64,000 bases of DNA from Camelus dromedarius (lineage: Eukaryota): contig NC_087436.1 in the NCBI RefSeq assembly GCF_036321535.1, positions 20,276,001-20,340,000 on the forward strand, written 5' to 3'. The notes below the pieces were generated by a model. The model was not told the origin of the DNA. It made no database searches and saw nothing but the letters and a program-made list of their open reading frames with translations. Shown one piece after another: positions 3,864 to 61,180 of the stretch (positions are counted from its first letter, which is position 1; every line of letters starts with the position of its first letter). The position numbers were made by a program, and so were the translations under genes.

Positions 3864-3957
3864 GTTTTTTTTTTCTTTTAATGGAGGCACTGGGGATTGA
3901 ACCCAGGACCTTGTGCATGCTAAACACGCGCTCTACCACTGAGCTATACCCTCCCCC
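3864..3957 (-). mobile_element. tRNA-Ala-derived SINE (vic-1-like, camelid)
   Basis: Reverse complement reads ggggagggtatagctcagtggtagagcgcgtg...gggttcaatccccagtgcctcca plus A-rich tail; A and B boxes present. Confidence 0.9.
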
Positions 3958-8337: not shown

Positions 8338-8428
8338 GGGGGGTGAGTATAGCTCAGTGGTAGAGCACGTGCTTAGCATGCATGATGAAGTTCCTGGGTT
8401 CAATCCCCAGTACCTCCATTAAAAAAAA
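8338..8428 (+). mobile_element. tRNA-Ala-derived SINE (vic-1-like)
   Basis: tRNA-like head with A/B boxes, polyA, perfect 14-bp TSD aaagacaaaaagtt (8324-8337 / 8429-8442). Confidence 0.93.
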
Positions 8429-14406: not shown

Positions 14407-16899
14407 TCTCATTCTTTTATAAACAATTAAATATCTTACCTACAAGTATGTAAGCAATTCTTACTAATATGTAATTTAAATCATCACTTGAAAGAATCAT
14501 TCACAAAGTCTGCTAATAAATGGCTTTGTGTTGTGTCCCCATTTTGGAATCACAACAAAAATATATCCAGTTCCGATCAGGGACCTGAAGCCAACCAAGG
14601 GTTTTCTCCAGAGTGCCCCAGGAGAACTGGAAAACAAAAATGAATCCTAGGAGTTGAAGTAATCTTAACACCCTACCTGTTTATGAACAAGTAGCCCGGT
14701 TGATGCAACCATATTCCAATTTATGAGCTCTTCAAATCAGCCTGTTCAATTCAGCAAACTTCGAGTGGTTCCTCTAGGCCAGGTGCTGTGCCTGATGCAC
14801 AAGACGGTATGAAAACGGTCTGCAATCTACTTTAAAATGTTCTTAGGTTAAGCTATCGGACCTTCACAATGTATCAGCTCAGGGATGTTCAGCACATTCC
14901 AGAGGGGGGCAATGATAGTTCATGGGGTTTTCTGTATCTCCAGTCTCCACCCTGCCAATCAGCATACTAAATGTCAGAAGCAAATCTCCGGTTTTTAAGT
15001 GTTGACTGGCATGACGAATATTCAGTGTCGTATATCACATATCATTGATGAAATTAAAAGTACTTGTGACACATGGACTGGTTGCAAATACAGGAGACTT
15101 TCTTCACTCTTGCATGAATAGGGTGTAAGAAGCAGATGAAGACAGCCTTTACCCCTAGAGGTGGAGCTCGAGTTTGATGCTCTAAGTAGTCTTGCGTCCA
15201 GCTGTCGGCTAGGAGGACTTCTGAGGCCTGCTGAATAGCACAGGAGTGAAAGATTCCTGACTCTGGAGCTGTGTCAGTCTCTTAGCAGGCAAGGTAGTCT
15301 TCAGAGCATCTAAGATGATGGCAAGCTGGGCCTTTTTTTAAACTTACAGAACAGCATAAGCAGCTTTGAACCTGCTTGCTCATCAATGTTTGGCTAATAA
15401 ATGTCTGTACCTGTGGCAGAATTTGATTTGAGACTTGCTTTCATTATGACCTAGCAGGAAAATTCAGGAGTAACTGACCCTCATCTACCTCAACTTCTTC
15501 AATGGCTACTGTAACCTCTTAGAAAGAACCTAAGAATCGTGTAGAACCAAGTAGACTTAGATCAGTAGCATTAACAGGCCCTACTATCAAGGAATTTACA
15601 GAAAAGTTTCTATAGATCTAAATGCTGCTCACCAGAGGCTACCAGGGTTCTAAGAGATGACTAATGGCCATGGTCCCACATGAAAGGTGTTTCCACTAAG
15701 CCATGTTCCTTGATGAAAGATGGATGTATATATATATACACACACACACCTGTATTTGTTCACTTGGCTTACTTTAGTCAATAGCCTAATGAAGATCAGT
15801 TACTCAGCTTTTCTTATGTGGATAAGGAACACACATCTTAGAATAATCAATGTCTTCTTCTTTAAAAGGTTCTGGAGGGGGTAATCTTACATTTTATCTT
15901 GGGCCCAATGTTCAAAGTATCAGAGAGGATTTCTTGATGTCTCCCCTAAACTCTGCTACTGACAGGTAAAGAAGTAGCTCTGAACGGCAAAGGTAAAGGT
16001 AGAAGGCGTTGCATCTCAGTGTTTAACTCTGGGTTTCTCGCTCCTCAGAAGCTTTTGATCTCCAGTTGTATTTTCCTCTTTGTTTTCCCCCCATCTTTAG
16101 AGTTGGGTCATTGCAGTCCCGTGGTGGGGGCTGTCTTGGCAGTTGCCCTTTGGAATAAATTGCTTGTTAGCATAACTGTTAATAAGGAGATACAAAATGT
16201 AAGCCTTTCCGTCATACCCGAAGGCAACCTTAATTATACAAGAGTGAGTAACCGCCCTTTGGCTCACTCGCCCTCTGGCTGCCATTTGGTGAGGCATCTT
16301 GGTCCTGCCACAGGCTGTAATTTACAAAACTGTAAACTTCACTTCCTCCATTTCCTCCTCCTTTACCCATCCCATCAACCACCACAATTTTTAAATATAG
16401 AGCTGTCCTTTTTGGTCACAGTTCATGACTAGTTATAGCAAGACTCTCTTGATACTCAGCCAGACTTTGATGATTTTTTTTTTAAGGTACCGGTTAAGAA
16501 CACCCCCAAGTTAAGAATAAATTCCTCCACAGGCTCAGAGTAAAACGCTCCTGTTTCCTTTCCCATAAGTACTAAAATAAAGTTAAGAAGTCCCTTTATT
16601 TCCTATCCCCACAAAACTATATTTTGTTTCAAATAGCTCTCCTTCCTAATGTTTGAAATCAGGAGCCAATGTTCATTTGGCACGCATTTTTCTGAACATT
16701 TATTCTATGGTGGGTATTGCGCTGAAGTTACGACAAAAAAAGATTTAGATATGTATGTGTATAACCTCAAAGGAGCTCACAAGTCTAGTGGAGGAGGAAG
16801 ACTGGTCTACAAATAATTATCGCTCACTGAAGCAGGCGATGTGTGACTTAGAATACAATGGATCTTCCCAAGCTACAGGACATCTTGGTTGCCCCGTAG

Positions 16900-17140
16900 A
16901 ATGCAGTATAGTATGACAATCAGGATCACTGGCTTTGGAGCCAGAATGTTTCCCTTCAAATCCACCCCCATCATTTATTAGCTGTGTAGTCTTAGGCAAA
17001 TTACGTAATCCCTCTGAGCCTCAGTCTTTGTAAAAGTCATCTGTAAAATGCAGCTAACATTTGCTCCTCTTTCATAGTGGATATAAAGCACTTAGCACAG
17101 TGCCTGGCACATAATAAGCTCTTAATAAACACTAGCTGCT
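16900..17140 (+). mobile_element. MIR SINE
   Basis: ggctttggagccagaa, tagctgtgtagtcttaggcaaattac, catctgtaaaatg, cttagcacagtgcctggcacata. Confidence 0.8.
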
Positions 17141-18429
17141 GTTTATTACGTGTCTTTCAAGGTCCTATTCAGCTGTGAAGATCTTTATATTCCAGCCCCA
17201 TCTTAACTCTCCAACTCTATTTTTTTATTAATTAAAAAATTAAATTAAAAATAAATTCAAATTGAAATGAATATGCATACAGAACACACACAACAGTATT
17301 ACATTATTCCTTAATTTTAAATAATTATTTCTTAATTACAAATTAAGCCTTCTACGTGGCATAGACTCCAAGAACAATCCAGTAGAATGAAGCGTAAGAA
17401 TACAAATTTAAACTGATGAAGCCGAGAGAGGTAAAAGCTTTACGTAAGAAAAAAGCTGGATGCTTAGTTAAATATTGAAGACTGGGAGTGATTTTTCTCT
17501 CCAAGACTGCTGAAATGATAATAAATGGATTTTAAAGTTACGTAAATTCAGAAGCAAACACAAACAGAACAGATTGCCAGGGGAGATATTGCAGATAAGA
17601 CAGTTAAACACATTTTTGGAAAACGTAAATCAAAGAGTTGGTGACTGATTTAGCTACAATTTAAAGAGCCAACAAAAAAGCACTTCATTAAAAGCAAACA
17701 AAAGCTCTGAGAGGCTCAGGAGGACTTGGAAGTATCTGGTATCACAGAGGGCAAGGAAGAAGAACAGTAAAAAGAAGGGGGTGAATTGAATGTTTGAAAA
17801 TGGAGCAGTGGGAATACTATGCAGACAGCTCTTGACAATCCCACCTGCTCAGAATGAGGCCAAGGACCCAATGTGGGGGTTACTCCGGTTGCCAAGCATG
17901 TGAATCCCAATCATACACTTGGGGGCCAAAGAAATGACCACTCAGTGCGTCAGTAGGCTCTGACTGTAAGCCAGACTTTGGCCAGAACTTCATCTCTAAC
18001 CTGACCTCCTGTGTGCGCTCTCTCTACCAGGAGACTACGATGATGGATGGTATCTCTGGATACCAATGTTGACTTGGATCCTATGTCCAATAAGATATCA
18101 CAATATCTGTTTATTCCCTTTTTCTCAATATCCTGTTACTCAGGTAAATGGTTTTAGGTCTCTAGTGAAAGACCAGGGTAAGCGTTACAGTGTATACTCA
18201 GCATGGTGATGTGTGCGTGTGTGCGTGTATAAAGAGCTAGGCAGTAACTCCAGAAAAAACAATAGATTATGAAAGAAAATATATAATATACTATATTACT
18301 TGGTTCTGTAGAAAACAATATTGACAGTTATAACATGTAAAACGAAAAGTTATTATTTTAGCTAAAGTAAGTGATGTGATTATAATGATAGCGTGAGAGT
18401 GAGGGAAGAGAAGTAGGACCAGAGTGTGG

Positions 18430-19139
18430 CCTATGAACTGGCACGTCAGCTGCCTCCTCAGGAGATCATGATGACACTCAGGCAACACTCTTGTGTGCCA
18501 GCTCGTATTGAGGAGGGGAAACCACACCTGCACATCCCAGGGTTCAGAATAGCCTGGGGATGGGGGTCAAAATCTACCAAGGCATCCATCCAGATGTCCT
18601 CATCTCATGTGTCAGGGACTCAGGTTTTCCCAGCCAGCCAGAGTCATGACTACCTTAGTTGAGCTTTCAACCATCTTTGAAGTTTCACCAGTCTGATAAC
18701 TAAATCCTGGGCACAATCTTCAGTGCTTTCTGTGAGCCCATTACATGAGATGAAGGCACCCTCAAAAGCTACCAAAGAGATCCTCTGGCTTTTACACTTA
18801 GTTTTCCATTTGTTAATTGCTCTCAGATTTTCAGTATCAACCTATAGAGTTTCAGTGCAACTTAAAAACACCCACCCAATTCCACTATCATTGTTATTTC
18901 TTGTTCCCCCACAGATTTCAAATGCCTGAATCATCCTATAGACTACTACATTTCCCTCTGCAGGCACAGCCCAGCTCTACCTTGGAAAGTCTTATCAATT
19001 AGCCTGCCACCTTCTTCCAGGGAATATCTGTGCACCAACCACCACCAGGAATTGGTTCCTTGTTACTAGCAAAGGAGTGAATGACTTGGCTCCTACACCA
19101 CACCTTACTGCCTACTTTCTTGGACTGCTTCTGGCACCA
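18430..19139 (-). mobile_element. ERVL (ERV3-16A3/HERV16-like) PBS and degraded gag N-terminal region
   Basis: Minus strand starts TGGTGCCAGAAGCAG (tRNA-Leu-like PBS) directly after the LTR; translated pieces EPIPGGGWCTDIPWKKVA, GIGWVFLSC, KCKSQRISLVAF, AQDLVIRLVKLQR and DEDIWMDA resemble ERVL Gag. Confidence 0.75.
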
Positions 19140-19566
19140 AGAGGCACAGGTTGGATTCTCTCCAGAAAACAGAAGTGAGCTTGACTGAGGAGTGCAAAAG
19201 CTTTTGAGATGGAATAATTGTGAAAGATAAGGGATGGAAACAGGATTAGGCAGGATGAGTAGCAGACCACAATGCAGATGTGACAAGTCTCTATCAGCCC
19301 CGTGAGAGGTCTGAGCTCCAGAGCAAAGACTACCTGTGAGAGGAATCCCGAGAATGCCAGATCTTTTTACCACCTCCTAAGATGGTCACAAGCTAGGGGC
19401 TGCCCAAGGAGAGAGCTCAGCCACTCTGCTTTGCTCAGTCAGTGGCTGGAAGCTGCCCCAAGAAACAAGTGACCTTGACTTAAATGCTGAGCTAGATCCT
19501 GAAGGAGCTAACTGTAGGGGGTCCTTTCTTAAAGGATCTGAACCATCCATTACCATATCTGCCACA
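19140..19566 (-). mobile_element. LTR16-family ERVL 5' LTR
   Basis: Reverse complement begins tgtggcagatatgg and ends gagaatccaacctg; aligns by eye to the LTR at 27418-27875. Confidence 0.75.
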
Positions 19567-21860
19567 AGATGGTTCTTATCCTGAGCTTATCTTTTGGAGA
19601 GGGAAACAGACACACAGCATATGATTTCCATTCAACGTGGTAGGTACAATGCACGAGGTCATAGCTAAGTGGAGGGCTGAATGGGCAGGATAACGTGGGG
19701 GTGAAGATATTAATCAAGACCAATCCCCAGGGTCTGGGTCATCATTTTGTAACTCTTAGTTAGCATGTCAACTTGAAAGACTGAAATAAGACCATATCGT
19801 GTATAATAAGTGCATTCACAGAGGGTCGATTTATCTTTTAATCCCTAAATGAAAAGAACTAAAACAATGTTTGGCATCTTCCAACCACAACCACAAATGG
19901 TGAAGTGGAAATTAATTTGATTTTTCATGGAGTTCTAAAAGAAAGCCAAGAAAATGTCTTAGTGTAGAATGCTTTGTGCTTACTCAAGTTTAAGGGTGGA
20001 ATGGATTTTCTAAAAATCATCAAAAAAATTTTATCAAGAGACTATGCTTAGTGTGGTCCTTGTAACAGAATGAAACTTTACTGTGGAATGTATTTTGAGT
20101 TTGGGATAGTCAATAAATCACTGTAATTTCTAGATAAACCATCATGTATTCCTTCAAAATGCAACTGCTGGAGTCATTATAAACTTACTTGGAATTACTT
20201 ACTTACTTCATTGGAAATTTTAAATTACAGAAGAACCTACATCAGTTAAAGAAAAAATAATAATACAGAAATAGTAACATATCATCTCTCCTTTAGAGGA
20301 AGAACATCAATTTTGTGACTTGCCACATGCTTTTCCAAATATCTTCATTTCAGTTTGGGCAACTTACTTCACCCTACATGGGCTAAAGAATCACCAGGCT
20401 TAAGCATTCAGATCTATTTACTGACTAGATCACAATTCCCTATAATAATTAGTTTTATCATTGAATAAATATAATATAGTTCACCCAGCTAGAGATAAGT
20501 GAACTCTGCTAGTTGATCAATCTTAATTAGCCACTATCAAGATCCCTTGAATTGTCCCGTTAATCACCTTGAAGGACTCCCCCTCGAATATGTTATGAAA
20601 AAAATCATCCTCATTTTGGTTCCCCAGATTTGTTTCTCCTTCTGATTTATTGAACAGACTATACATATATATTCTGTAAAAATATCTATGGTTGTAAATA
20701 CTTATTACTGAAAGATAAATGATCCTATCAAGTCATCAATGGGTGGTAATGGATTTCAAGATCTAAAAAGGTCTAAGTGTTTGATGCTTGGATGAGATCA
20801 CTAAGAAAAACTACTCACAAAATGAACAATTTAGGCCCTTCTACAGTAACAACATTCTAAGTTAGTCAGAAGCCAGGCTACGATGGCCAGTTTTCTCCAA
20901 GGAACCTCTGAACTGTGGCACTCACAGGAAATGTCTCTGCAAGTCCTTAGCCAGTGCAATGGAAACCATCTATTACTTTCTTAATCATATATTTAATGCT
21001 AGGGATTCCTTGGCCTTGAAGATTCCACTTGACTTTAATAGTGTGGACTTTGTCAAATGATGTGCAAAAATACTACCAAGATTCTACAGGGCCGCACGCC
21101 CATCTGGGTTTGATTTAGTTAATCTATCAAGTACTTGTGTGCAATTTTTCAGACACATGGTTTCGCTTCTCTACTTTTCAAGTATGTTCTATTTACTTAG
21201 GCAGATGTTGCAAATTAGCTCCTAAAATATTGCAAATGAAGTAAAGAGATCCTTTATAGTAGATCTGAGTCTAATATGAGTCTCTTTACTGATTCCCAAA
21301 GACAGACTAATCCCAGACTTCTCTGCAAGTCTTCAAGAAAAAAATTCTTTAAAAATTTAAAGATATGTCCCCTTCCACTTCCTTGTTCCTTGGTACATGG
21401 TGTTCCTGCTGCACCTTGGTGACATCCCTGATATCTGGAAACTTTTGAGCTCATATTTATTCCTGGCCATAAAAAAATGTGAGTACCCTTAACCTTTTCC
21501 CAGCTCTTTCCCTTGCCCCATTAAACCAAAACTATACTGTGAAAGAAGTACTACTAAAGCTTCCACTTAAACTTCTGGTCATAAGAATTTCATTAATCAG
21601 GCATGTGGGTCACCATAAATTAACCATGAGGCAACACTAATTGAGAGCATTTAAACCTATCCAGTTAAGACATTTAAAAATGCTACTTTGAGAATATACA
21701 TTATGAATAGAAAATATTTTAAAATTATTATGCAGAGAACACCTAGGTTTTCCCTTGCTTTTTAATCAGTTCCATCAAAAAGGAATGAATTAGTAAAAAA
21801 ATATTTTAGCAGAAGAAATTGTTTTTCAGCTCCTCCATTCACACGTTTTCCACTATTTAC

Positions 21861-21952
21861 CTTTGCTGATGTCTCCAAAGCAATGCCTCCAACACTTGTT
21901 TCTCCAAAAGGGTCCCGCCCCATATTTTCAACCATCTGCACTGTGATTCCAC
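21861..21952 (-). other. Candidate internal exon (92 nt), gene unidentified
   Basis: cacatccag acceptor, AAG/gtaaat donor, frame GGITVQMVENMGRDPFGETSVGGIALETSAK with mostly purine-first codons; no homolog recognised. Confidence 0.17.
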
Positions 21953-22029
21953 CTGGATGTGACAGGAATTCAATAATTACTCCAAAAGAAATGACATTAT
22001 CAAGTATCTAGCGTCAAGAAAGGCAGGAT

Positions 22030-22218
22030 GCTTGTGCTCAATACTCAAAGTGTGACCCGATCAGCAGTGCTGGCATATTATTAGGTAGCTTCTCAGACAT
22101 GCAGAACCTCAGTCTCATCCCAGACCCACTGAACCATGATCTACATTTTAATAAGAACCTTTTAGGTAGGTAAACCTGTAGGTAACTTTTCTACACATTG
22201 ACATTTAAGAAGTGCTGA
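22030..22218. mobile_element. MER5-like hAT-Charlie DNA transposon relic
   Basis: tactcaaagtgtg, atgcagaacctcagtctcatcccagacccactgaacc, tttaagaagtgctg. Confidence 0.65.
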
Positions 22219-22219
22219 A

Positions 22220-22430
22220 TTGGACTACATGGATTTTAGGGTCCGACGTTTTGAGTTTGTTTTCTACTTTGTGATTTATTGACTGTGAGACCATGAGCGA
22301 ATTACTTGGTCTCTCTGAACCTCAGTTTCCTCATCTGTCAAATAAAGATAATAATACTTCAAATGGTTGTTGCAAACATATTCAAGAAAAGTATTTGTGA
22401 ATGTGTGTGACACAGAGAAAATTAAATATG
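22220..22430 (+). mobile_element. MIR SINE
   Basis: ctctctgaacctcagtttcctcatctgtcaaataaagataataata. Confidence 0.75.
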
Positions 22431-22547
22431 TTAGATATATAAACAATTAGGTTGAACAGTCAGATATTGACAATTTACTACAGTTCAACTTTACCTGGCA
22501 CAGTGAATCCTAAATAAACCATAGGTTACTGCTCTCTCTGGCACTTT

Positions 22548-23160
22548 CCTAGGGCTGCCATGACAAATTACTGCAAACTTAGTGGCTTAAACTAATAGAC
22601 ATTTATTCTCCCCTAGTTCTGGAGGCCAGAAGTCTGAAATCAAGGTCCTGTCAGGAGGCGCCTTTACTCAGATGTCTAGCAGTCATTACTGGCTGTTAAC
22701 TGGGACCTCAGCTGATCTTTCAGTCTGAGGACCGACAGGTGGCCACTATATTTGGCCTCTCCCCACAGGCTCGTTTGGGCTTCCTCACAACATAGTGTCT
22801 GAGATTCTGAGAGGCCAAGAAGGAAATGAGTAGGCTTCTTATGACCAAGCCTTGGATGTCACATAGCATCATTTCCATTATACTCTGTGAAGTCCAGGCA
22901 GCCACCAAGACCTACCTGGTGTAAGAGTAGAGGACATAGACTCCCCTATTTGATGTGAAGACTATCAGAAAAATTTTAGGCATATTTCAAAACTATCAAA
23001 GTCTGCCCTCTGGCCTCAGTATTATTATTTACAATGATTTACATTTCTCCCGCATGCAAAATACACTCACACTCTCCCAGGGACTCCCCAAAGTCTCATG
23101 CCATCATGAGTCAGGCTTAGAAGTCATCTAAATCAGATCCAGGTGTACTTAAGATTCCCA
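22548..23160 (-). mobile_element. ERVL-MaLR MLT1 LTR(s) plus truncated internal sequence
   Basis: cctagggctgccatgacaaattac...aacttagtggcttaaa; after about 22998, MLT-internal-like tctgccctctggcc...catgcaaaatacactcac, truncated near 23160. Confidence 0.7.
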
Positions 23161-23199
23161 CATGTGGTTCTCTGAACACAGCCCCTTCGCACTGCTCTT

Positions 23200-26100
23200 A
23201 TTCATCCATAGAGTATATTCTCAGCTCTTAAGTGACATGGGATGTGATACCCTTGAAAGGACCCTAGGGGCAATCTCACTGCTAATGTGGCCCCTAGGGA
23301 CTCGAAGGAAGCAGTTGTCCACCCTGAGCAAGGTTGAAATGCCTGAGCTTCTATGAGAAACACTAGAAGGAACAAAAATGCTAAGAGACGTGGATATGCT
23401 AGAATGGATATATCATGTGAGGCCGAAAGATCCACCAGAGAACACACCATTCATCAAGGCAATCGGGAATGTGCTGGTGAGAGGGAGACACCAGCATCAC
23501 TAGGAGGTTCAGTGATGGCTCTCTTCTGCAGGCCAGGGCTGACGATACAGGGGGTGGTCACAGAGCTGGGCTCTTTCATAGCAATAGAGGCCATGTCAGT
23601 GACATGGGGTACTTTGTCACTAGAAGCCAGGTAAGAGGGGCAGCCAAGAGGCTTTGACCCTCAGAGAGTTGTAGAGATGGTTAATTGAACATGGTGTCCT
23701 TATGGGCAAAATAGGCCGCCAGCAAGAGTGCTGCTTCACATTTAGAGTGAAAAGTAAGCACAAATGGAGAAGCAGGAAGTTGGGAAGAAGGCTGCCCAAA
23801 TAAAAAAATTCATGATCCCTTGCTCAGCTCCCTACCTGAGCCAGTTTTCAAATCCAGAACCTATTGTCTAGGTCCCCAAGAAGAAAGACCCTGCAACACC
23901 ATAGCAAGCGTGTCCTGTATACATTCCCTGAGTCCTTCCCCAAAGCAACCTTCAGCCATGTGCTTGAGGGGCTATACACTGCAGAAATGGAAATATCCAG
24001 ACTTTGAAAGGTCTGTGGGACACAGAGTCCAAGTTGACATGAAGTTCTAGAAATCTGAAGCGTCTTCACCCCGTGAGAGTGGGGACAGATGGGGTAGTTA
24101 AAAAGGAAGACCTGGTCAAAGTCTGACTTCATTTTCCTGTCCCTGAATGTATTACTGTGATTGACATACCTGGCAGTTGGAACCCTGGGCTCTACTGGGT
24201 CTCTGGCCTGTAGGGTAAAACTATCATAGTGGGGAAGGCCAAGTGGAAGGATCCTAAATGCCACACCCATTTCCCTCCAGCCAAGAGAGTAAATCAAAAC
24301 CAATTCTGCATCCTGGGGTCGTGGTCGGGGTGCTGGGGATTAATGGTACCATTAAAGATCCAAAGGATTCCAGGGTGGCCATCCCTACCATATCTCAATG
24401 TAATTTGCCAGCCTCACCCCTACAGAAGCTGGACAGATCCTGGAAAATGACTACAGACTTCCACACACTCCACTGAGTAACAGCCCCAGCTGCAGCTGCT
24501 GTGTCAACTGTGGTGCCTCCTTTCTCGAGTAGATCAATGTGGCCTCAGGAACATGTCATGCAACGATCTGCTTGGCAAACTCATCTTTATATATCCCATT
24601 CAGGAAAGAGGATCAGAAACACACTGCAATCGCATGGAAAAGACAACAATATATAATTTCCCCCCAAGACTATGTGAACCCTCCCATCCTCAGTGATAAT
24701 ATAATCTGGAGTAATCTGGACCATTTGGATTTCTTTGCAGAGCATCTGATCTATCCATTACGTCAGTGACATCATGCTGGTAGGACATAATGAGCAAGAG
24801 GTGACTAGCTTCCTGGAGATTTTGTGACATGTGCTATCACACATGTGCTCCAGAGGATGGAAATAAACCTTATGAAGTTTGAGGGGGCTGCTACTTGAGC
24901 ATTTAGGGGATCCAACGGCCAGGGATATTCTATGCTATCCCTCTAAACTAGATTGCTGTGCCTAACACCTCCTACTGTTAAGAAGGAATCATAACACTTA
25001 CTAGGCTTCTTTGTGTTCTAGGGTACCATGTTCCACATCAGGTGTACTTCAGTCTATTAACTAGGTGACACAGAATGCTGCCATACTCAAGAGGATCAAG
25101 AGCAAGATAGGGATCTGCAGCGGGTCTAGAAGTGCAGTGCTCCGCCACTTGGGCCGTATGATTTAGTAGACATCATGATGATGGAGATATCAGTGATGGA
25201 AATGAGATACAGGGGAGAGCTTATGACAAGCCCAAGGGGGAGAAGCCTAGTGCAGATGCTAGGGCTCTGAAGCAATACAAGTCCATCTGCAATGGAGACT
25301 CACATACACACCTTTTGAAAAGTGGGTCTTAGAGTGCTGCTGAGTCATGATAGAGAACTGGAATGTTGGAGCATGGGACACCAAAGTGATTATGCATCCT
25401 GAACTGTATAATATGAGCTGGAGTCTACTGAACCTGCCAAATTGGAAGGAGGTGAGAGTCCAGCAGCAATCCATCATAGAATGGAAATATGCATTCAAGC
25501 TTGAGCTTCAGCAGGACCAGAGGACACAGCAAGCTGCATGAGCAGGGAGCCCAGACCCCCATGTCATCCATCAAGGTTTCACCAGCATCCCACCCCAAGC
25601 TCATACCTCTGGTTGTATCAGGAGAAAGAGAGGGAGTTCTGTATGATCAAATGAAAGAGGAGGAAAATGCCCAAGCTCAGTTTACAGATGGACTGGCTCA
25701 GCATGTGCAAGCCAAAAATTGTATGACAGCTGTATGACATTCCCACTCAAGAGTGGCCTGGAGAGACAATTACAAAGGGAAAGTCTTCTCAATGGGTAGA
25801 GTGTTATGTGGTGTACCTGGACGTAATCACTTTGTGTGAAAGGAGAAGTAGTCCGAGATGGAATATAGATGGACTCGTGGGAAGGGAAAATGGCTTGTCT
25901 GGTTAGTTGGAGACCAAGAAGGGAAAAGACTGAAAGCTGGCAGTTCAATCTTCAAAGCAAGGAATTGTGGGGTGGAGGAACGGGATAAGCATGTGGAATT
26001 GCACGTGAAGTATGTAAATTACCAAGCAGACAAAGTGAGTTGGCCAGTTTAGGCTAGCTACCTTTATCAGTATCTACTGCAGTGGAGGCAAAATATACAC

Positions 26101-27417
26101 ACAAAGTTGCCACGATAACTGAAACAGGGATTATGCATGGACCCAAGAGCACAGACTTCCACTAACTAAGGCCAATCTAGCTAACCATGTCCAACCATAT
26201 CCAATGTTCCGTATCCAACCAGCCAACAACAGAGACCAATGCTAGCCCTTTGATATGGTAGTGCTCTTTAAGGAAACCAGTTGGCCACTCGGTAGCAAGC
26301 TGACTTCACTGGGATTCTTCCATCTTGGAAATTCCAGCAGTTTCTTCTCACAAGAATAGACACTTATTCCTGGTGAGGTTTGCCTTTCTTGCCCACGGTG
26401 AAGCACTGCTAACTGGGAATTTATGGAATGCCTGATCTACAGATACGGAATTCCAACATAACATCACATCCAACCAGGGAATTCATTTTATCAGGATAGA
26501 GGAGCAAAAACATAGTGCATGTGATGACAGGATAGCGTATACCAGTTCACCTACAACACCCAGAAGCTGCCAGCCTGTTAGAGCAATACACAGCCTCCTG
26601 AAGGGGCGGCTGGAGCACGAGCTCAGAAGCAGTGCCTTGTAAGGATAGCACACCATCCTCCGGGAAGCAGTACACTCATTGAATCAGGGACCTCTCTATG
26701 GTGCCGTAACCATCATGAAATATACATGGGTCTGGAACCAAGGGATGGAAGTAGAGTTGGCCTTATTTACTATCACACCAGGGATCTACTGGGGTGTTCT
26801 GTAGATTCTTGTCTCCACAACTCTGGGCTCTCCAGGATGAGAAGCCCTTGCACCCAAAGGGGGCAAGCTGTCACCAGGGGTCGCAGCAAGGGTCTCACTG
26901 AAGTACAAGATAAAGCTAGCTGCCGCCTGAGCACTTTGGGATTTTTGTGTTCAGGGACCAGCAAGCAAGAAGAGGAGTCACCAGCTTGTCAGAAGTAATG
27001 GACCCTGAACAGCATGAAGAGGAAGGCTTCCTGTTACCCAACAGAGACAAGGAGGAAGAGGTGGGCTCGGGTGACCCATTGTGAGCACCTCTTGGTACTC
27101 TTCGCCCACAAGAATGGAAACACACAAGCTTGGGCAGACAAGGCCGCGTTTCACAGGGAGTCAGACTTCAGGAAAACTGCAAAGACCAACATAGGTGGTA
27201 GGTTAGAGTGAAGGGAATTTAGAATGGCGAGAGGAGAGGGGAGGTGATGGGTACCAGCTGGGGCCTTGAGACAACTGCAGAGATGGGGGCTCTATTTTGT
27301 CACACAAACCTCTCTCTATCCAAGTTTCCCCTCAGGAAGGGAGGTCCACCAGAGCCCATGAGGAGTTGTTTCCATATATCATGAAGAAGTAGATCTGTGT
27401 GCCCCAAGGCTGGACAA
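23200..27417 (+). mobile_element. ERVL (ERV3-16A3/HERV16-like) internal region: mid-gag, RT, RNase H and integrase remnants
   Basis: Gag-like TLSKVEMPEL and MLEWIYHVRP; RT-like SPLQKLDRSWKMTTDF, ICLANSSLYIPFRKEDQK, PQDYVNPP and HYVSDIML (decayed YIDD, about 24760); RNase H-like FTDGLAQ; integrase-like segment at about 26280-26400; many stops and frameshifts. Confidence 0.88.
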
Positions 27418-27875
27418 TGGCAGACATGGAGATATGCTCAGCGCACCTTCAAGAAAGACCTTGCGGACCAGGAGGAGGGCGGTGGCTACCTGGCAGATTT
27501 CAATTGTTGGCTTCTTCAGGATTCACCTCAGCATTCAAGCAAGTTCACGATCTCCTCAGAGAAGATCCCATTCATGATAGAGTAAGGTGGTGCTACAAGA
27601 GGTCAGATTCTCCTTGAAGTGGCCCCCAGGCAACAAGTAAGGTGTAAGAGCCTAGCCCTTTGCACACAACGTGGGCCTCCTCCAATGGTGACCTGCTCCA
27701 GAATTTCCTGTTGGGCTGGCCGAGACCTTGTCAGGTCTTCATCGCGTCTGACCATCTTCTCCGCTGTGTCCTGCCTTCCCCACCCTCTTCTTCCAGGGGT
27801 GCCTCTCCTGTGAAAACCTTCTGCACCCTTCATTCCAACCCAGTTTCCGCTCTCCAGAGAACCCAACCTGCAAAC
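27418..27875 (+). mobile_element. LTR16-family ERVL 3' LTR
   Basis: Starts tggcagacatggagat after the internal region and ends gagaacccaacctgcaa. Confidence 0.78.
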
Positions 27876-28654
27876 CATGTTTCATTCAGTTTTGTAGCCA
27901 GATTACCCAGTATAGCTCCTGGAACCAAATAGGTACTCAACAAACACTTGGTGAACCCAGCTGAACTGTCCACTGCAATCTGTGATAAATCACGTGCTTA
28001 GGCACGGTCATGTAACATGGCAGATGCCAACAGAATTTCTTGTCTTCTCCTTTTTTTTTGTTTTTAAACTTTTACCTTCTAATCCATCAACTTTTAGGGA
28101 CTCGCAGGCAGCAAGGATGAAGATGTTTTCGTTGGCTTCCTATTCACTAAACTGAGACACAATCTAATTCTTCCAAGTCTTTGGCAGTTTTCTGAGACAG
28201 GGAATTTTCCATGCCAGGAAAGGGAGATGGATTTGTATTTCTATCACAAAGAATTTTCACTATTTCTCTCAGAGGACTGTGCTCATCAGAGCCAGTCAAA
28301 TTTGAGAAGCTACCCGTAAGGACGGGGCAGTTGAAATAGCCCATCAGCCAAAAAAACCACATAAGAGCCCTCAGTGCAACTCTGAAGCCACCCACGTAGA
28401 CCGCGGCGGAGCAATCAGTCAAGGCCCAGACGCAGGAGCTCACTCATGTGGTGGCTCAGGGACTATTTGAAGAGCTTGGCAAAAGCATGTAGATTTTATG
28501 AGGGGGCCTTTAAGATGAGAAACAAAAAGTGATTTAGATCAGCTGCCCGCACTGTGAATCAAATTTCCTGTGTCACTCTGTAGATGGCTTTGCAGCTATA
28601 TATAATGCTTTGTGCCAGAGCACTGATATAAATAGCACCATCGAAATGTACTCT

Positions 28655-28820
28655 GGGGGAGGGTCTAGCTCGGTGGTAGAGCGCGTGCTTAGCATGCATG
28701 AGGTAGGTTCAATCCCCAGTACCTCCATTTATAATAAATAAATACATAAATAAACCTAACCACTCCACAAAAAAACATCAAAAAATAGCAAAGTAATAAA
28801 CACACACACACACACACAAG
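28655..28820 (+). mobile_element. tRNA-Ala-derived SINE (vic-1-like) with A-rich and (CA)n tail
   Basis: ggggagggtctagctcggtggtagagcgcgtgcttagcatgc...ggttcaatccccagtacctcca, aataaacctaa tail. Confidence 0.88.
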
Positions 28821-30899
28821 ACACATACTCCATAGAATGAGAGCAATTCCGATAGCATCTCTAGGTAGAAAACAATTGTCTTTATCCAGGTCAGAGGTAT
28901 TTAAAAAGAAAGAACTTGGGGCCAATTGTTTTGTCTCAGGAATAGGAAGAAATGCCACGGTAAATTTTCTTCGGCATATCGGCGACAAAGCAGACCTCTG
29001 CACGAAAAACCTGACACATTCTCCATGGCAGTGTTTCTCTGGGGTCTCAATTTGGTTTACCTTATAAAGCAGAATCAAAGATTGGGGAGGCCTAGAGAAC
29101 TACTGTAAACTCCCACCAAACCCAAGTCCTACAGTCATTTGTGAGTATGAATTTCGGAACTTGTAGCATCATTTGAGTCACAGACGAAGCAAAGGCCCAT
29201 TACAGCTGCTAGTAACTATACCTGCCTCTTTGCCTAGCCAGCACGCCAACCTTGAACTTCCTCTTGGCCATCCGTTATTACAAGTTGTGCTGAAGACTGC
29301 AGTGGTTTTGTGATTGAAAATAAATGCAGCTGAAGACCAGGGCTATAAACGTCTTGCTTAAGGCATGAAGTACATGTGTATGTAAGCCCTTCATTACACC
29401 ATTTTAAGAGACTTGGAATAATCTGGTATTCTCCTACCACTCAATTTATATTCAAGTTAAAAGATAGCAATTTCCCTTGAGTGGAATTTCCCCACACTTT
29501 GTTTTGTCAAAGCAATAGAGATTCATTTAATGAAAGGAACCCTTAAGCATACAAGGCACAATTGACTACAACTCTAAAGAGAATTTTTTCACATATTTAT
29601 GTGGATGTTTATAATTTGTTTATGCTAAGTACAAACAAACAGCCCAGTTTGTTGACACATTAAACAACTGTTACCATATATCTGACACAATTCTGGGGAT
29701 AGAGAGTGAATTTTAAACGTAAATTCAATTTCATGCGCTAAATACATCTCTTTTAAAAAGAAAAGGAATTGTCTTCAATGGGAGATGGTAATGCAAGCCC
29801 TTTAAGTGCAAATTGCTAGAGGAACCTTGCAAATCCCTTATCAATAAAACACTGTACTTCCAATTTCTCCTTAACTGTTAGCCACTGAAACAGTTGCTTG
29901 TTAAGGTCATATTGCCAATGGTTAAAATATATGTGTGCAATAGATTACAGTTTTAACTGGCATTAGGTTTCCAAAAGTATAAATATTACATTGCAGCAAA
30001 AATTTTTTTAAAGGAGGGATGGTGATAAATAGTATTTATCGAAAATTTAATGCACCAAACAATTTTGAGGCACATTATGTGTTTTCTGGTAGCCACACTA
30101 AGGAGAGTAGCACGTCAAGTCACCAATCAGACATATCGAAATACGTATTATAGTGTACTTCTTGGAAGCCAACGTCAATGTTTTTAATAATTCGTTGGTG
30201 CTAACAAGAAGTCTACTTTTTCCTGATAGCAATTAAAAAAAATTTCCATGAGCAGAGACACAGATTTTTTCTTTTAAAAATTCAGTGAGCCTAATCGTAC
30301 GTGCTATGCCAAGAGAAAAAAGTACACAAATGGTACTTTGGTTATTTTACTTTTGTTTCAAGTAAATGCACAATAGTTTGAACTGATGATTAGTGAGTAT
30401 ATACTGGGTTGCGAGGCATAACTAGCTAAAAAAGAAATTCTGCTGTTGAAGACAGGAGGTATATTAGACGTCATAAAGAGAACACTTAGGAATTTATAAG
30501 ATACAACCTGAAACTATCGATACATGAAAGATGGTGTTTCAATTACCAGCTGATTGGTAGCAAGTTACTCCAAACACTAGTGTCTTAAACAACAAATTTT
30601 ATTGTATTCTAAATATACAGAGACCAGTACAGTATGTATGATTTCTATAAATACTTACCAGAACAGTCACCTGACCGATAAGAAATCCATTATGCCCTAC
30701 TATTGATGCCCACTCGCTAAATATCAGTGATGTATGAAACGTGAATTTTTTTTCTGAGAGTCTCATTTCCTTCTTTATTTAGGTTATATGAGTCTTATGA
30801 AAAACTAATCTTACGGGTTTTGGTTTTTTAAATTAACTCTTCGTGTTATAAAACCTTTCATTGCAGCAAACTACAAAATGGCTAACAATCCAGCAAGGT

Positions 30900-31084: not shown

Positions 31085-31725
31085 ATTTGTCTCACTCTTC
31101 TGTGGGTCAAGAATTTGGACAGGACGTAGGGAGTGAGGGCATAGCTTAGTGGTAGAGCACATGCTTAGCATGCTTGAGATCTTGGGTGCAATCCCCAGTA
31201 CCTCCATTAAAAAGAAAAACAACAACAACAAAAAAAAACCCCAAATAAACCTAACATTACCATCCAAAAAAACAAAAAACACAAAAAAACCCAGGCTGTG
31301 TGATGCCCATGTCATCACAGACCTTTAAAAAGAAAAAAAATTGGACAGGACACAGTGGGGACAGCTTTTCTCTGCTCCACAATGTCTGGGGATGAGTCAA
31401 AAGGCTGGTGGCTGGAAGAAATGGGAAGGAGGCAACCTGAACATCTCTCTCTTTCTTTCCGTTAATCTCTCTTACTCCCTCTCTTGACGTCTCTCCATAG
31501 CCTCTCCATGTGGCTACTCTGGGTCTCCTCATAGTGTGGCTATCAAACTTCTTCCATGAAAACAGAGAGTCCCAGAGGACCAGATCAAAGCTTCCAGTCT
31601 CCTGATGTATAGGCCTGAGATTGGTACAGCATCTTGGCTCAGCCCAGGGTCAAGGGAGGGGAACCAGATCACACATCTCAAAGGGCAGAGTACCAAGGAA
31701 TTTGTGGACCTTTTTAGTCAACCAC
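31085..31725 (-). mobile_element. ERVL-MaLR LTR (MLT1H-like), interrupted by the SINE
   Basis: tctgtgggtcaagaatttggacagg [SINE] acagtggggacagcttttctctgctccac ... ggaatttgtggac...caaccaca. Confidence 0.6.
31129..31338 (+). mobile_element. tRNA-Ala-derived SINE (vic-1-like) with unique 3' extension
   Basis: tRNA-like head; TSD ttggacaggac on both sides (31115-31125 / 31341-31351). Confidence 0.88.
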
Positions 31726-32253: not shown

Positions 32254-33074
32254 AAAAAATCATAATTTCTTTTAAAAAATATTCCAGATGGGGAAAAAAA
32301 GTATTGTGATGGCCAGACAATTATACCCATTCGAAACTCAATGAATAGGCATATTTCAAGAATAGCTTGTTGGATCCCATTACTTCCAGCCTGTATCTTC
32401 GCCACTACTATTTTGGCATTCTATATCCTTGATGTTTGATAGTAACGACATTTGCAACATGATATTTTAACCCACAACAATAGCATTACTTTCTCTTCTG
32501 ATGTAAAATAACCAACCAACCAAAAAAAAAAAAAAAAGCAATCTATTAGGAATACCTACTGTGACTTCAAATGATCCTTCCAAAGAAAGAGTGATTTTGT
32601 ATTCATCCCAGCCTTTAAGAAAGTAAATTTTCAAGAAACACAACATAGACATTTAACAGCAGAATAGCACATCTGAGTTTGAAGGAATGTTGATCCACCT
32701 CATTAAAGGGAAAATAAGTGTGTATCTACCAAAAGTCTTAGAAATACATCTTAAAGACCACATACTACAAACCTAAATAAAATGAAGTCAAGTAACAACG
32801 CAGAGCCACGCTAATCTAGCTACTCTACCCGCACCGGGACTTCCGACAGGGTGAAATCAGGACAGCTGAGTAAGGGTCATGAACGCGTCAGGGAGCACAG
32901 CCCACCCAGCCTCTCCACCCAAGATCACTTGATGGCATAAGTGACCCACCTGTTCTGCCTGATATTCAGTTTGGTTCAACAAACATGTACTGAGAAGTAG
33001 GTTCTGTGCTAGGAACTGAGTATTAGATGACATGATCACTGCCTTGGTGGGAATTACCATCTGATGATGATTTT

Positions 33075-33432
<358 letters not shown>

Positions 33433-33433
<1 letters not shown>

Positions 33434-33703: not shown

Positions 33704-34138
33704 TGTATTGGTTTCCCAAGGCTCCCATAACAACGTACTATAAACCGGGTGATTTAAACAGTGGAAATGTATTGTCTCATAGCTGGGGAGTCTAGAAGTT
33801 TCAGATCAAAGTGCTGGCAGGGTCGGTTCCTTCTGAGGGAGAATCTGCTTCAGGCCTGTCTCCTAGCTTCTGGTGCTTTGCTGGCCATCTTTGGCTTTCC
33901 TTAGCCGTAGATCTCTTCTTGATGCCTTCATTTTCCCTAGGTGTGTGTCTGTGTCCAAATTTCCCTTTTGTATAAAGACAGTAGTTGTATAGAATTAGGG
34001 ATGCACCCTGATCCTGTTTGACCTTGTCTTAACTAATTACCTCTGCAACAACCCTGTTTCCAAATGAGGTCACATTCCGAGGTGCCGGGTGTTAGGACTT
34101 CAACATGGGAATTTTGGAGAAACACAATTCAAACAACA
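33704..34138 (-). mobile_element. ERVL-MaLR solo LTR (MLT1B/C-like)
   Basis: tgtattggtttcc...tctcctagcttctgg...tttccaaatgaggtcacattc...gttaggacttcaaca...caaca. Confidence 0.85.
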
Positions 34139-34354
34139 GGTCCTTAAGGTCCAGAGCAACTATTCACTTTGCCCAGTGAATTGAGCAACTTTACTTCTAT
34201 CTAAAGAATAACAGTAAGCAGGGGCAGAGGGTTACAGGGATGAGCAAGCTCTCATGTGCTATAAGCTTTGATCTGCACATGTTCTAGACAGGGATCATTT
34301 AGGAGGTGCTGTATGCAAAAGAACGCAGGAAGGGTTCCTTGAGTGTCTGAAATG

Positions 34355-35150
34355 TATCCACTTAACACACATTTATTGGGCACTGTTCTGGGCACTGAAG
34401 CTACAGCAGTGAACACAATGGACAAAAATCTCTGAATTCATGGAGATCACATTCTATTGGAGGGAGACAGAGAGAAAAAACAAAATAATAAATAAATCAC
34501 GTGGTGCTTTAGTAGGTGTCAGGTGTTATGAAGTAAGACAAGACAGGGTAAAAGGGATGGGGAAGGCAGAGTTTGACATTTTAAACAGGGGAGGGGCTGA
34601 AATTTTGAACAGGGTGGTCAGGGAGGCTTCACTTAGAAGGTGAAAGTTAAACAAGGAGTTGAAGGTCACGGGGTGGCGAGCCGCACGGCTGTCTGGTGAA
34701 GGAGGGCTTCAGACAAAGCAAACAGCTAGTGGGCTAGGAGGGTGACTGATGTTTAGGGAAAACAGGCCAGTGTGGCTGCAGAAAGAGAAAGTGGTGGGTG
34801 GAAAAGGTCAAAGAGACGTAGGAGGCAGACCACAAAGGAACTTGTAGCGCACTTCAGCTTTTCTCCAAGTAAAGGAGGGAGCGTGGAAGGTTCTGAGCAG
34901 AGGAGAGATGTCATCTGACTTGAGCTTTATTAGGATCACTCTGGTTCTAAAGGTGAAGGGGTGAAGAGAAACACAGGCAGAAGCGCTAGGAAGCTATTGC
35001 ACATAGTCCAGGTGAGCGGCGTTGGCTGGGGCCAGGGTCGTAGTAGTGGCGATGGTGAGGAGCATTTGGATTCTGGATATATTTTGAAAGGAAAGCCAAT
35101 AGGATCTGGGGTGGATTGATGTAGGACGTGAAAGGTAGGAAGGACGCTCT
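34355..35150 (-). mobile_element. L2 LINE fragment
   Basis: catttattgggcact, ggtggtcagggaggcttcac, aggatcactctgg, ggattctggatatattttgaa. Confidence 0.8.
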
Positions 35151-35379
35151 TAAGCAAAGAAAGGAATAAGAAATGATAACCTCCCATTTTTGTCTTGTGT
35201 CAAATGGTAAATTCTCTTCACATTTCATTGTTACCAATGAGCTGTTTTTATCTAGGTGAGGTGAAAATTATTGAAGAGTAAATCCAGGAGTGAAAAAGCC
35301 AGGGAATAAATTACTTTAAATGTGAAGTATACAAAATTCTCTAGGAAAGTGCAAAGCAACTAAATTCAAAATGTGAGAA

Positions 35380-37892: not shown

Positions 37893-38057
37893 GGGGGAAG
37901 GTATAGCTCAGTGGTAGAGTGTGTGCTTAGCATGCAGTGGGTCCTAGGTTCAATCCCCAGTACCTCCATTAAAAATAAATAAGTAAATAAAAATAAACCT
38001 AATTACCTCCCCCTCTAAAAAGAAAGACAATGTAGATAAAGAAATTCATATTTTTAA
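37893..38057 (+). mobile_element. tRNA-Ala-derived SINE (vic-1-like)
   Basis: tRNA-like head; perfect 15-bp TSD aaagtatagaatcta (37878-37892 / 38058-38072). Confidence 0.93.
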
Positions 38058-38558: not shown

Positions 38559-38987
38559 TGCATTGGCTTCCTAGGGCTCCCGTGACAAAGAACCACAAAC
38601 TGAGTGGCTTAAAACAGCAGAAACTCATTCTTCCACTGATCTGGAGGCTAGATGTCTGCAATCAAGGTGTCAGGAGGGCCATGCTCCCTCCAAAGCCTCT
38701 AAGGGAGGATCCTTCCTTGCCTCTTCCAGCGTCTGGAAGCCCCAGGTGTTCCTTAGCTTGTGACAGCATCACTCCAATCTCTGCCTCCTTCTTCCTGTGG
38801 GCATCTTCCAATGTGTCTCTACCTAGATTTCCCTCTTGTAAGAACACCAGTCACATTGGATTAGGGTCTCTCCTAATGACTTCATCTTAACTTGACGACA
38901 TCTGCAAAGACCCTTTTTCCAAATAAGGTGACATTCACAGGTTAGGACTTCAGTATCTTCTGGAGGGATGTAATTCAACCCACACCA
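38559..38987 (-). mobile_element. MLT1C-like solo LTR nested in an older MLT1 LTR (about 38230-39137, + strand)
   Basis: TG...CA ends, perfect 5-bp TSD gtccc (38554-38558 / 38988-38992), MLT1 motifs. Confidence 0.88.
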
Positions 38988-39899
38988 GTCCCAGTGGCAT
39001 TCTGGAACTGCTTTACCAGCTCTGGATCTTCTACCTCTGAACTTACGGCATGAAAAAAATAAATCCCCAATGTGGTAACGCCTCTGTTTATTCAGAGCTT
39101 TTTGTATTCACAGCAGAACTCGATTCCTAACTGACACAGCTACTTCTAAGTGAAGGTGCTGGCAATTAAAAAATTATCTGCCATGTGGAGCCTACCTATT
39201 CAGAGGACGGTTTGTACATTTTTAAAGACAGAGACCATGATTGTCTTATTTGGGGCTGGGGCAATGGGACTGGGTGGGAATCCGTGCCCAGCTGAGATTT
39301 TTCTAGTCATTTAAAGATCAAAGCTGTTTTCAAAATAGAGTTTGCCAGACACTGGAAAGGTCAATGGACATGTATTCAGCAGCCAAATTTAGACCCTAAC
39401 CTTGCTCTGGACTCACACCCGTCTCAGATATGTCTTCATTAGTCACCCCGACATACCTCAATGAATGAGGCCATGAAGGTAGCTTTTATGCTTAAATTAC
39501 CAGAAGCACAGTTTACTTGTCCAACACAATCAGACTCAATTTTATGGTACAATTTTCTGCCAGGTGAGGTGCACAGAAATATAGGTGCCAGAAAACACTT
39601 CAAACCGCCAACACTGAAATTTGTCTTAATTTGGAGAGCGTTGCCAGGAGTCCTCAGACCATTTTCGTGGCATCCACACCAGGAACATAACCATGATTCA
39701 TTCCCCTTATTCATGAGCGCCAGCAGCGGGGACGAGCAATTACTTCCATCATCTCTGTTAGTCAGACAGCCCTGAATTGTTCGCTTTCCCACTCAGCAGG
39801 CTGAATAAAGGCTGACATCAGAGTAAATAGATACTCCAGTCACTTCTCCAGAAAGAAGAGGGCCAAGTTGACGAAAGGACATTCTTCTGTCCTTTCTCT

Positions 39900-40600
39900 A
39901 AGAAGTATTTATTGAGTGCCTATCTGCTACCAGACTAATGCTGAGGATTAAACAAATAAGAGATCATCCCTACTTTCAAGGAGTCTACAGTTTTGTTACA
40001 GAGATAGACAAATCAACTGATAGACACAAGATACTGAAATAAATGCTGAGAGAGCTTTAAGTGCAGGATGCTAAAGAAATACACAAAGCGATGAGCTCTT
40101 TTTGGGCAATCAGGGTGAAGTTCTTGATTAAACTGGTGTCAAAAGTTAGACATGAGCGTACATGGGGAGTTAGCCAGGTGAGAGAGAACAGCAGATGCAA
40201 AGGCCCAGAAGTAAAAGAGGACATGACAGATTTTGAGAATCACTCAGTTTGTGAAGTGTTTGTAAAGTGAGTATAAGGTGGAGAATGTCAACAAAAACAA
40301 ATCAAACGTGGTCCGTACTCTGAAGGCATTGGGGACTCACTAGAACTGTTAGGCAGTTACATGATCAGGTTTGCGTTTTGGGAAAAGAACTTTCTGGCAG
40401 AATGGATTACAGCAGGATCAGACATGGAGAAACCAGTAGAAGTCTCTAAAGGTGGTGCTCTGAGGGAGGCAGAAGCAGAGAGAAAGGAATGAAGAAACAT
40501 AATTAGGAGTAAAATTGACAGCACTTGAATTATCACATTTAGCAGGCACCCAAAGATGACACTGAAGTTTATGGTTTAGTTAACTGGCATGCGTGGAATG
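39900..40600 (-). mobile_element. L2 LINE fragment (old)
   Basis: agtatttattgagtgcctat, gatgcaaaggcccagaag, acatgatcaggtttgcgtttt. Confidence 0.65.
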
Positions 40601-49879: not shown

Positions 49880-50257
49880 CCCCAGTGACCTCCTGGCAGT
49901 CCCACAGACTCAGGAGGCACGCTCTGGTCCTGGAACCTTGGTACTGCTGCTTCTCTGCCTGGAGAGCTCGTCCTGCATTTACCCCCATGACAGCTACACT
50001 CACTTCATCCACTCAGAAAGGCTTTCTCTGACCATCTCATCTAAGACAGGTTCCTTGTCAGCCTTTATCCCTCTTCCCTGCTTTATCTTTCTGTATCGAA
50101 TTTATTTCTACCTGATATCATATTGTAACTTACTGTCTGTCTCCCCACGAGGAAGTCCCTGAGGTCAAGGACTTTGTTCAGTTCACCGCTGTATCTCCTG
50201 TACCTACAACAGTAGCTCTCACACAGTATGTGAAATTAACGAAAACATGAATGAATG
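49880..50257 (+). mobile_element. L2a 3' end
   Basis: ctctgcctggagagctc, gttcaccgctgtatctcc, ends atgaatgaatg. Confidence 0.7.
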
Positions 50258-59806: not shown

Positions 59807-61019
59807 AGAAGGCAACCCCTTGACAAGCCTTCCGGTCTCCAGTAAAAGCTCTAACTCTGAGAAGCTCATTTAGGTCTAAGTGGAGCAAGGACCATGAGGT
59901 GATGACAGAGGTGCTGGCTGAAATGCTGAGCTCAGCCCGCTGCAATTTCAGATTTTTGAGTCTCCCTGTTTTGAAAAGGAATTAATTGTTTTCTTTTATT
60001 TTTACTTCATTAAAAAAAATCCTCAACTATGAACACAAACTTGGCAAACCCATGAATCATAAATACAAAGAAAATCTCTTAAGACCATTTAGGGTATTTC
60101 TCTGCTTCTGAGTAAACTTAGGTCTACCTTTTAAAACGTATCTCTAGGGAAAGTTTTCCCTAAATCCTCTAGACTAGGTCAGGGTCCTCTGTACACCTCC
60201 ATACCATATTGTATTTCTCCTTCAGAGGACTTCTCCCAAAACGACACAAAGAATTACTTGGGCTCTCGGGTTAAGATGGCTGATGAAACTCACACCTTTG
60301 CCTTTCTTCCCTCCCAAAGTCCTGGTGAGAGGATGCAAGTAATACAGCCATCCAAGTAAATCTGTAACAGGCAAAGTAGCTATACACCAGAAGAGTATGG
60401 AACTTGTAGAAGATTTAATCCAGGTAGGGGAAAACTTAGGGAGGCGAGGAACCAGAAATCCTATATATGTGAAAGAAGAGACTTTCAAGGAAATTTTTCC
60501 ACTGGAGAATGGGCCTAAGTCTCGATCAGAAGTAGCTGGGGCTGGTAGGAGACTGAGAGGCAGCTGGCTTGCACTGAGGGGTCTGGGACACCTGCATCAG
60601 CAGCGCGTCACTCACGGAGCTGCTCACTTGGCCTCAGCCCCATGGTAAAGCCACGAATACATTATTAAGTAGCCAAATAAAATTAAGAGTTTGATAAGTA
60701 AGATCCCCACTGTGAGCACTGGGACTAGAGAAGGCAGGCGGTAGCCCTGATAACTGACAGCTCTCTTGAAGGACAAGGAGCCCCTACACGCAGAAGTCAG
60801 TCCTCCTGGTCCTCCCTTCCCCCAGCCCCCATAGCTGACTCCTATAACAGGAATAGAAAATCCACATTCACTGCCAGGAGAGCAAACATCTTCAGACACA
60901 CATCAGCCCATCTAGATCTTTTTTCTGCATAGAAACAATGAAAATCTCCAAACATTGGAACAAAACCAAATTGTTTCATTTTGTTATATCATTTCATTTT
61001 ACTGGGTTAACCTTTGAGA

Positions 61020-61180
61020 AAACAGTTAAAACAGAAAATGGAAAACAATTTTAAAAGCAAATAATCCTTATCCTAAGAGAAATCAAGAGAACGTTGTACC
61101 CATTAAAACAGAACAGGTGGCTGTGAGAATCGATGACTGTTCTTGGAAATTTAAAATGTAATGATGTAAATTTAAAATAT
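61020..61180 (+). mobile_element. HAL1/old L1 ORF1-like fragment
   Basis: aaatcaagagaacgttgtacccattaaaacagaacagg...tcttggaaatttaaaat resembles the HAL1 consensus as remembered. Confidence 0.4.

Follow-up and report, generated by a model that had tools for sequence, protein, structure and literature searches.

A single ancient ERVL provirus in the dromedary genome, very probably split by a later inversion of about 4.8 kb

In the genome of the dromedary, Camelus dromedarius, two halves of an endogenous retrovirus (ERV) of the ERVL group lie in opposite orientation, each lacking precisely the long terminal repeat (LTR) that the other half carries. The question raised by this locus is whether one provirus was broken after integration, two related elements inserted side by side or the assembly was joined in the wrong order. 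The window analysed here is a 64,000-nt stretch of contig NC_087436.1 (assembly GCF_036321535.1, positions 20,276,001 to 20,340,000), a repeat-rich piece of mammalian DNA with ~41% GC, and the structural evidence is drawn wholly from within it, plus one search of public sequencing runs. We conclude that the locus very probably represents one provirus, followed after integration by a chromosomal inversion of ~18430-23200 (~4.8 kb). A preliminary description made from the sequence alone had proposed the same history, which is now supported by evidence absent from that description, an older L2 element split between the two halves.

The two LTRs are homologous and oppositely oriented, with 19147-19512 on the minus strand aligning to 27506-27870 on the plus strand at a score of 100.8 (maximum, 39 in 200 shuffles; same-strand control, 26.4). 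Global identity was 61.5-65.9% with four stiffer gap settings and 73.9% with the laxest, and no third copy of the LTR was found within the window. Reading of the sequence refined the ends to 19566->19142 for the 5′ LTR (termini TG...CT) and 27416-27875 for the 3′ LTR (AA...AC); of the TG...CA pattern only the 5′ TG persists, an erosion expected at 35% divergence. Both are presumably LTR16-like. Target-site duplications (TSDs) of ERVL elements are 5 bp long, and the candidates CATCT and CATGT, a near match already pointed out in the preliminary description, share 4/5 letters, for which the probability of at least 4/5 by chance is 0.020 in one register and 0.056 for the best of three. The primer-binding site (PBS; 19139->19122) agrees in 12/18 letters (hand count) with the ERV16 Leu PBS printed in the accessible text of PMC6562477, where it likewise lies 2 nt past the LTR. 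Together, these results bear out the minus-strand succession of LTR, Leu-type PBS and Gag N-terminus described previously, with the LTR now placed at 19142-19566, as well as the homologous plus-strand LTR at the 3′ end.

Host sequence outside the LTRs ties both to one place. Outside each LTR lies sequence that we take to derive from an L2 3′ end. The two flanks were scored one at a time against three star profiles, each built on a different master copy from 12 further L2-like 3′ ends found elsewhere in the window. Without the TSD letters, the minus-LTR flank ended best at column 70/63/63 (75/68/68 with them), while the plus-LTR flank with its 5 bp started best at column 71/64/64. Joint scores without TSD letters were 33.8/44.6/34.8 for the three profiles. 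In 2,500 trials each, these were attained by a random first flank 1, 0 and 0 times and by a random second flank 3, 0 and 1 times; wrong-orientation controls reached 17-28. A previous version of the test was also positive (0/1,091 per control) but counted the TSD letters twice, and is not relied on. On these profiles the outer flanks read as adjacent halves of one host L2 3′ end, with the ~5-bp TSD between them and the halves now pointing in opposite directions. One L2 was thus very probably cut by a single integration, so that both LTRs share one integration site and ~18430-23200 was inverted after integration; one ~4.8-kb inversion is the simplest move yielding the observed order. The 64 kb contain at least 12 L2-like 3′ ends (for example, 34345-35160, 39895-40600, 50000-50258 and 16665-16900).

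Several points weigh against this interpretation. The spacing is resolved to only ~±5 columns, with a 5-column gap scoring best in two of three profiles; when its 5 bp are left off, the second flank has an independent peak at the expected column in one of three. The L2 reference copies were selected by eye, and marginal versions of the test gave 19/2,768 (top 5 sites), 160/2,768 (top 12) and 654/12,031 (expected column). Pairwise alignment of the flanks to L2 copies produced nothing clear and a 6-copy nhmmer L2 model no match, both approaches lacking power. At the reciprocal host–host junction, no element was seen continuing across. Finally, an extra copy of the protease region, described below, covers a part of the ERV that the plus half also carries, and its order and orientation are those that a second provirus would show.

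The coding remnants divide in the same manner. Using the plus-strand mid-Gag frame, phmmer recovered 20 short relatives (E 5e-6 to 1e-3), a profile of which led, by word-based protein search, to one full-length reference, an Fv1-like protein of 489 aa from the plateau pika (P0021); word-based searches with the mid-Gag piece alone, or with P0021 against longer proteins, gave no match. In tblastn, aa 77-187 of P0021 matched the minus strand at 18901->18584 (E ~1e-6) and aa 376-486 the plus strand at 23267-23586 (E ~1e-10 to 1e-9). Frameshift-aware alignment lengthened the minus piece to aa 10-259 (19103->18430), of which the tail, aa 210-259, taken alone was not significant (48 versus a null maximum of 62, n = 25), and one short relative (P0016) carried the plus match back to 23198. 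The Gag of this provirus is homologous to ERVL/Fv1-like Gag, and its pieces are complementary on opposite strands (aa 10-259 on minus, aa 376-486 on plus) and non-overlapping, with ~90-115 aa absent between them, a relationship claimed in the preliminary description and upheld by both kinds of alignment. P0021, which lies outside the window, is an uninterrupted 489-aa open reading frame (ORF) derived from ERVL Gag and annotated as Fv1-like, possibly a domesticated gag.

Downstream of gag, the plus half is more decayed. Pfam searches of all six frames of 17500-27500, together with 20 short pieces and P0021, returned no relevant match; the reverse transcriptase (RT) piece resembled foamy-virus Pol weakly (E 0.62; range to 1.3), the integrase piece had no match in the PDB and a stretch near 26800-27085 is presumably dUTPase-like. 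These searches support the RT, RNase H and integrase labels given previously to this half only weakly.

Overlooked until now was a second copy of the protease region, 355 bp long, at 17857-18211 on the minus strand, 220 bp beyond the left break in Gag. It is 65.5% identical to 23894-24209 (score 110.6; maximum, 42.5 in 200 shuffles), and the homology ends at both of its edges; for other tiles of the plus half, the LTR pair aside, the window yielded no clear counterpart (weak scores, 53 at most). The Kimura two-parameter (K2P) distance of the protease pair (0.45-0.47) overlaps that of the LTR pair (0.41-0.54; 62-69% identical). We take the stretches flanking the copy to resemble the 5′ and 3′ parts of one long interspersed element (LINE) of HAL1/L1ME type, so that the copy would have been dropped into a LINE rather than being continuous with the start of Gag. 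The spacer at 18235-18420 showed no homology to the ERV, and nothing above background against other repeats in the window. A short (TG)n-like run (18212-18240) lies exactly where the copy meets this LINE-like spacer. Elsewhere, 60230-61170, presumably another HAL1/L1ME-type fragment comprising the 5′ end and the start of ORF1, gave no significant alignment to 17440-17856.

The copy could be a local templated product of the same event, or made near it, or an unrelated fragment of the family. We lean slightly towards the local origin. An independent fragment is improbable a priori because the copy lies within ~1 kb of a break; a local copy must be early because it has diverged as much as the LTRs, and divergence and CpG-decay counts failed to separate the two. 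With a duplicated protease region and lost Gag and MaLR sequence, the locus departs from a balanced two-break inversion: either the inversion did not arise from two clean breaks, or a stray fragment adjoins it.

An alternative without any inversion posits two independent, truncated insertions of one ERVL family, head to head, the minus element retaining LTR, Gag N-terminus and protease and the plus element mid-Gag, pol and LTR. It accounts for the two protease regions and for LTR and protease pairs that are equally diverged, and one deletion could have taken the 5′ parts of the MaLR and of the plus element together. Yet both insertions would have had to land at homologous positions within L2 3′ ends, with orientations that match (~1e-3, a rough estimate), and a 4/5 TSD match by chance (0.02-0.056) and complementary Gag ends would be required as well. 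Overlap of the internal pieces had been regarded in the preliminary description as a mark of two insertions; the copy at 17857-18211 (-) formally creates such an overlap, but does not rescue the model, which leaves the shared integration site unexplained. The split L2 largely refutes it, and we regard it as extremely unlikely. A homology-driven inversion, in which a second, opposite ERVL copy on the left recombined with the provirus between gag regions and left the minus protease as its remnant, accounts for the shared integration site as well as for an extra protease copy whose order and orientation match, consistent with protease distances (0.45-0.47) close to those of the LTRs (0.41-0.54). 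However, it predicts a partner 5′ LTR and Gag start before 23200, and partner pol and a 3′ LTR left of 17857, none of which was found in the window, calls for three further deletions and for a piece of LINE separating gag from protease, and has only chance to offer for Gag ends that are nearly complementary, which makes it unlikely.

Local misassembly of the window, the other alternative considered previously, was evaluated by searching public sequencing runs for 784 sampled words over 17000-24500, with ~3 words per junction by hand estimate. Overall, 20/24 listed runs, from 9 studies and 2 organism labels, held a share of 1.00 of the 784 words; 14 of these are flagged as possible source data, while 6, in 3 studies, are not. 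The remaining four were small same-sample additions with a share of 0.00. Two false junctions would cost ~6 words (0.99), yet a share of 1.00 was seen, and the sequence around the breaks is old, unique and marked by deletions, with no young inverted repeat that could mislead an assembler. In favour of misassembly, the junctions were judged from a few words each rather than from reads and 14/20 holders may be source data. The word test suggests that the assembled order is genuine, and disfavours a misassembly, which we consider very unlikely.

Under a single provirus with a later inversion, the course of events runs as follows. The split L2 shows that an ERVL/class III retrovirus of ERV3-16A3/LTR16 type integrated once, its target being the 3′ end of an L2 LINE already in place, and left a 5-bp TSD. 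The geometry shows that ~18430-23200 then inverted, turning the 5′ LTR, the PBS, the start of Gag and 3.6 kb of the host DNA upstream, while the rest stayed in place. Viral auto-integration is ruled out and the event must have been chromosomal, because that host DNA was inverted along with the LTR. No near-identical or long inverted homology was found at the breaks and sequence appears to have been lost at both junctions (~270-350 nt of gag at one, the rest of the MaLR at the other), from which we infer joining by end-joining or replication template switching. The 355-bp minus protease copy may have been templated locally, during this event or close to it, in which case its divergence would put the event soon after integration.

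The preliminary description had the internal sequence of a MaLR element cut off near 23160; we place the cut in this presumed MaLR at ~23200, with no continuation beyond it within the window and no second MLT1 LTR on the left. The first 120 bp of the LTR at 22539-22975 align to 38564-38677 and 33712-33821. Further LTRs, which we presume to be MaLR (MLT1-type), occur at 33705-34120, 38560-38990 and 2400-2760, the first two sharing their terminal 110-135 bp with 22512-22658.

Neutral sites in mammals change at ~2.2e-9 per site per year, and at this rate the LTR distances of 0.41-0.54 correspond to integration ~95-125 million years (My) ago, although distance-to-age conversions of this kind are described as unreliable in the accessible text of PMC3758187. 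The inversion postdates integration and predates the separation of the two organism labels in the run data; the protease copy, if part of the event, would date it. If that copy is a local product of the same event, the event is older than ~90 My and occurred soon after integration. It is conceivable, though doubtful, that one replication-based multi-template-switch event in the Mesozoic mammalian germline produced the inversion together with the junction deletions and the inverted 355-bp protease copy, in which case the same scar should be common to human, horse, pig and cattle.

Inversions of kilobase size through old repeats are commonplace, and nothing at this locus indicates function or a new kind of element; the provirus is dead, fully decayed and neutral, and the event is of an ordinary class. 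The element is very probably an ERV3-16A3/HERV16-type class III (ERVL) provirus, the subfamily assignment being presumptive. ERV3-16A3/HERV16 is paired with LTR16-family LTRs in Table 4 of PMC5753468, as far as the accessible text goes, and a full-length ERV16 copy at HCP5 measures 6,173 bp including insertions in that of PMC6562477. Like ERV16 as portrayed there, the camel provirus has LTRs of 425-460 bp, a Leu-type PBS 2 nt after the 5′ LTR, an ERVL/Fv1-like Gag, full decay and a comparable length (~6.1 kb for the summed halves) but, unlike ERV16, it is split in Gag by an inversion, has lost ~90-115 Gag codons and has an extra protease copy nearby. The accessible text of PMC3758187 describes an orthologous pre-placental ERV-L locus, at least 104-110 My old and, like ours, an ancient ERV-L that inserted once, has LTRs that have diverged strongly and can be dated through orthologues; the word 'inversion' is absent from the main text. 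Reciprocal inversions, local 2-jumps and templated-insertion bridges are reported from cancer genomes in the accessible parts of PMC7025897, where the combination of inversion, junction deletions and a small inverted local copy seen here is ascribed to template switching. In contrast to those cases, the camel event is ancient, germline and fixed, its junction microhomology has eroded and the local origin of its copy is only slightly favoured. ERVL sequence is abundant in camelid genomes according to the accessible text of PMC8605555. We found no report of this locus in the literature covered, which mostly excluded subscription journals and all supplements.

Scans for related loci found none in viral contigs or prokaryote genomes, and none in plasmids by blastn; one metagenome match (L001) was a bacterial false positive. 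The locus illustrates that a kilobase-scale inversion can be proved from a single genome using a split older repeat and its TSD as internal witness, and after comparison of orthologues its presence or absence could be used as a marker in mammalian phylogeny. If the protease copy belongs to the event, it would be a rare self-dating fossil of template switching; a single event common to placentals would be a complex rearrangement that can be dated, as well as a phylogenetic marker free of homoplasy.

Table 1 Features of the provirus and its surroundings, in window coordinates
Feature	Position	Strand	Remarks
Non-ERV flank	17480..17850	+	Presumably resembles HAL1/L1ME 5′ region
Extra gag-end/protease-region copy	17857..18211	-	From alignment to 23894-24209
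Non-ERV spacer	18235..18420	+	Presumably resembles 3′ region of HAL1/L1ME-type LINE
Gag N-terminal remnant	18430..19103	-	Reference aa ~10-259; stops and frameshifts; ends at putative left inversion break, ~18430
Leu-type PBS	19122..19139	-	2 nt after 5′ LTR
5′ LTR	19142..19566	-	Starts TG; from LTR–LTR alignment
TSD, 5′ copy	19567..19571	-	CATCT
Upstream half of host L2-like 3′ end	19572..19636	-	Probably extends to ~19760
MaLR (MLT1-type) LTR	22539..22975	-	Within inverted segment; strand and name presumed
MaLR internal sequence	22976..23197	-	~200 bp; identity presumed; cut at putative right inversion break, ~23200
Mid-Gag remnant	23198..23586	+	Reference aa ~350/376-486; no LTR upstream
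Provirus protease region	23894..24209	+	Lacks 31 nt present in extra copy
Decayed pol remnant	24250..27400	+	RT, RNase H, integrase and dUTPase-like labels presumptive
3′ LTR	27416..27875	+	From LTR–LTR alignment
TSD, 3′ copy	27876..27880	+	CATGT
Downstream half (3′ tip) of same host L2-like element	27881..27960	+	Profile start counted with the 5 bp

Beyond the provirus, Rfam reported only the tRNA-like heads of short interspersed elements (SINEs) in the window. Heads resembling tRNA-Ala with A-rich tails lie at 3882-3953, 8343-8418, 28658-28727, 31135-31206, 37897-37968, ~59700 and 63560; ARAGORN and Rfam called tRNA genes at these seven sites, which are SINEs instead, presumably of camelid type. 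A compound (CTTC)n/(TTTC)n/(TATC)n microsatellite of ~360 bp occupies 33073-33433. The AT-rich stretch at 29300-30500 contains no recognised repeat and could be conserved non-coding sequence, which would make it a useful anchor for orthologues.

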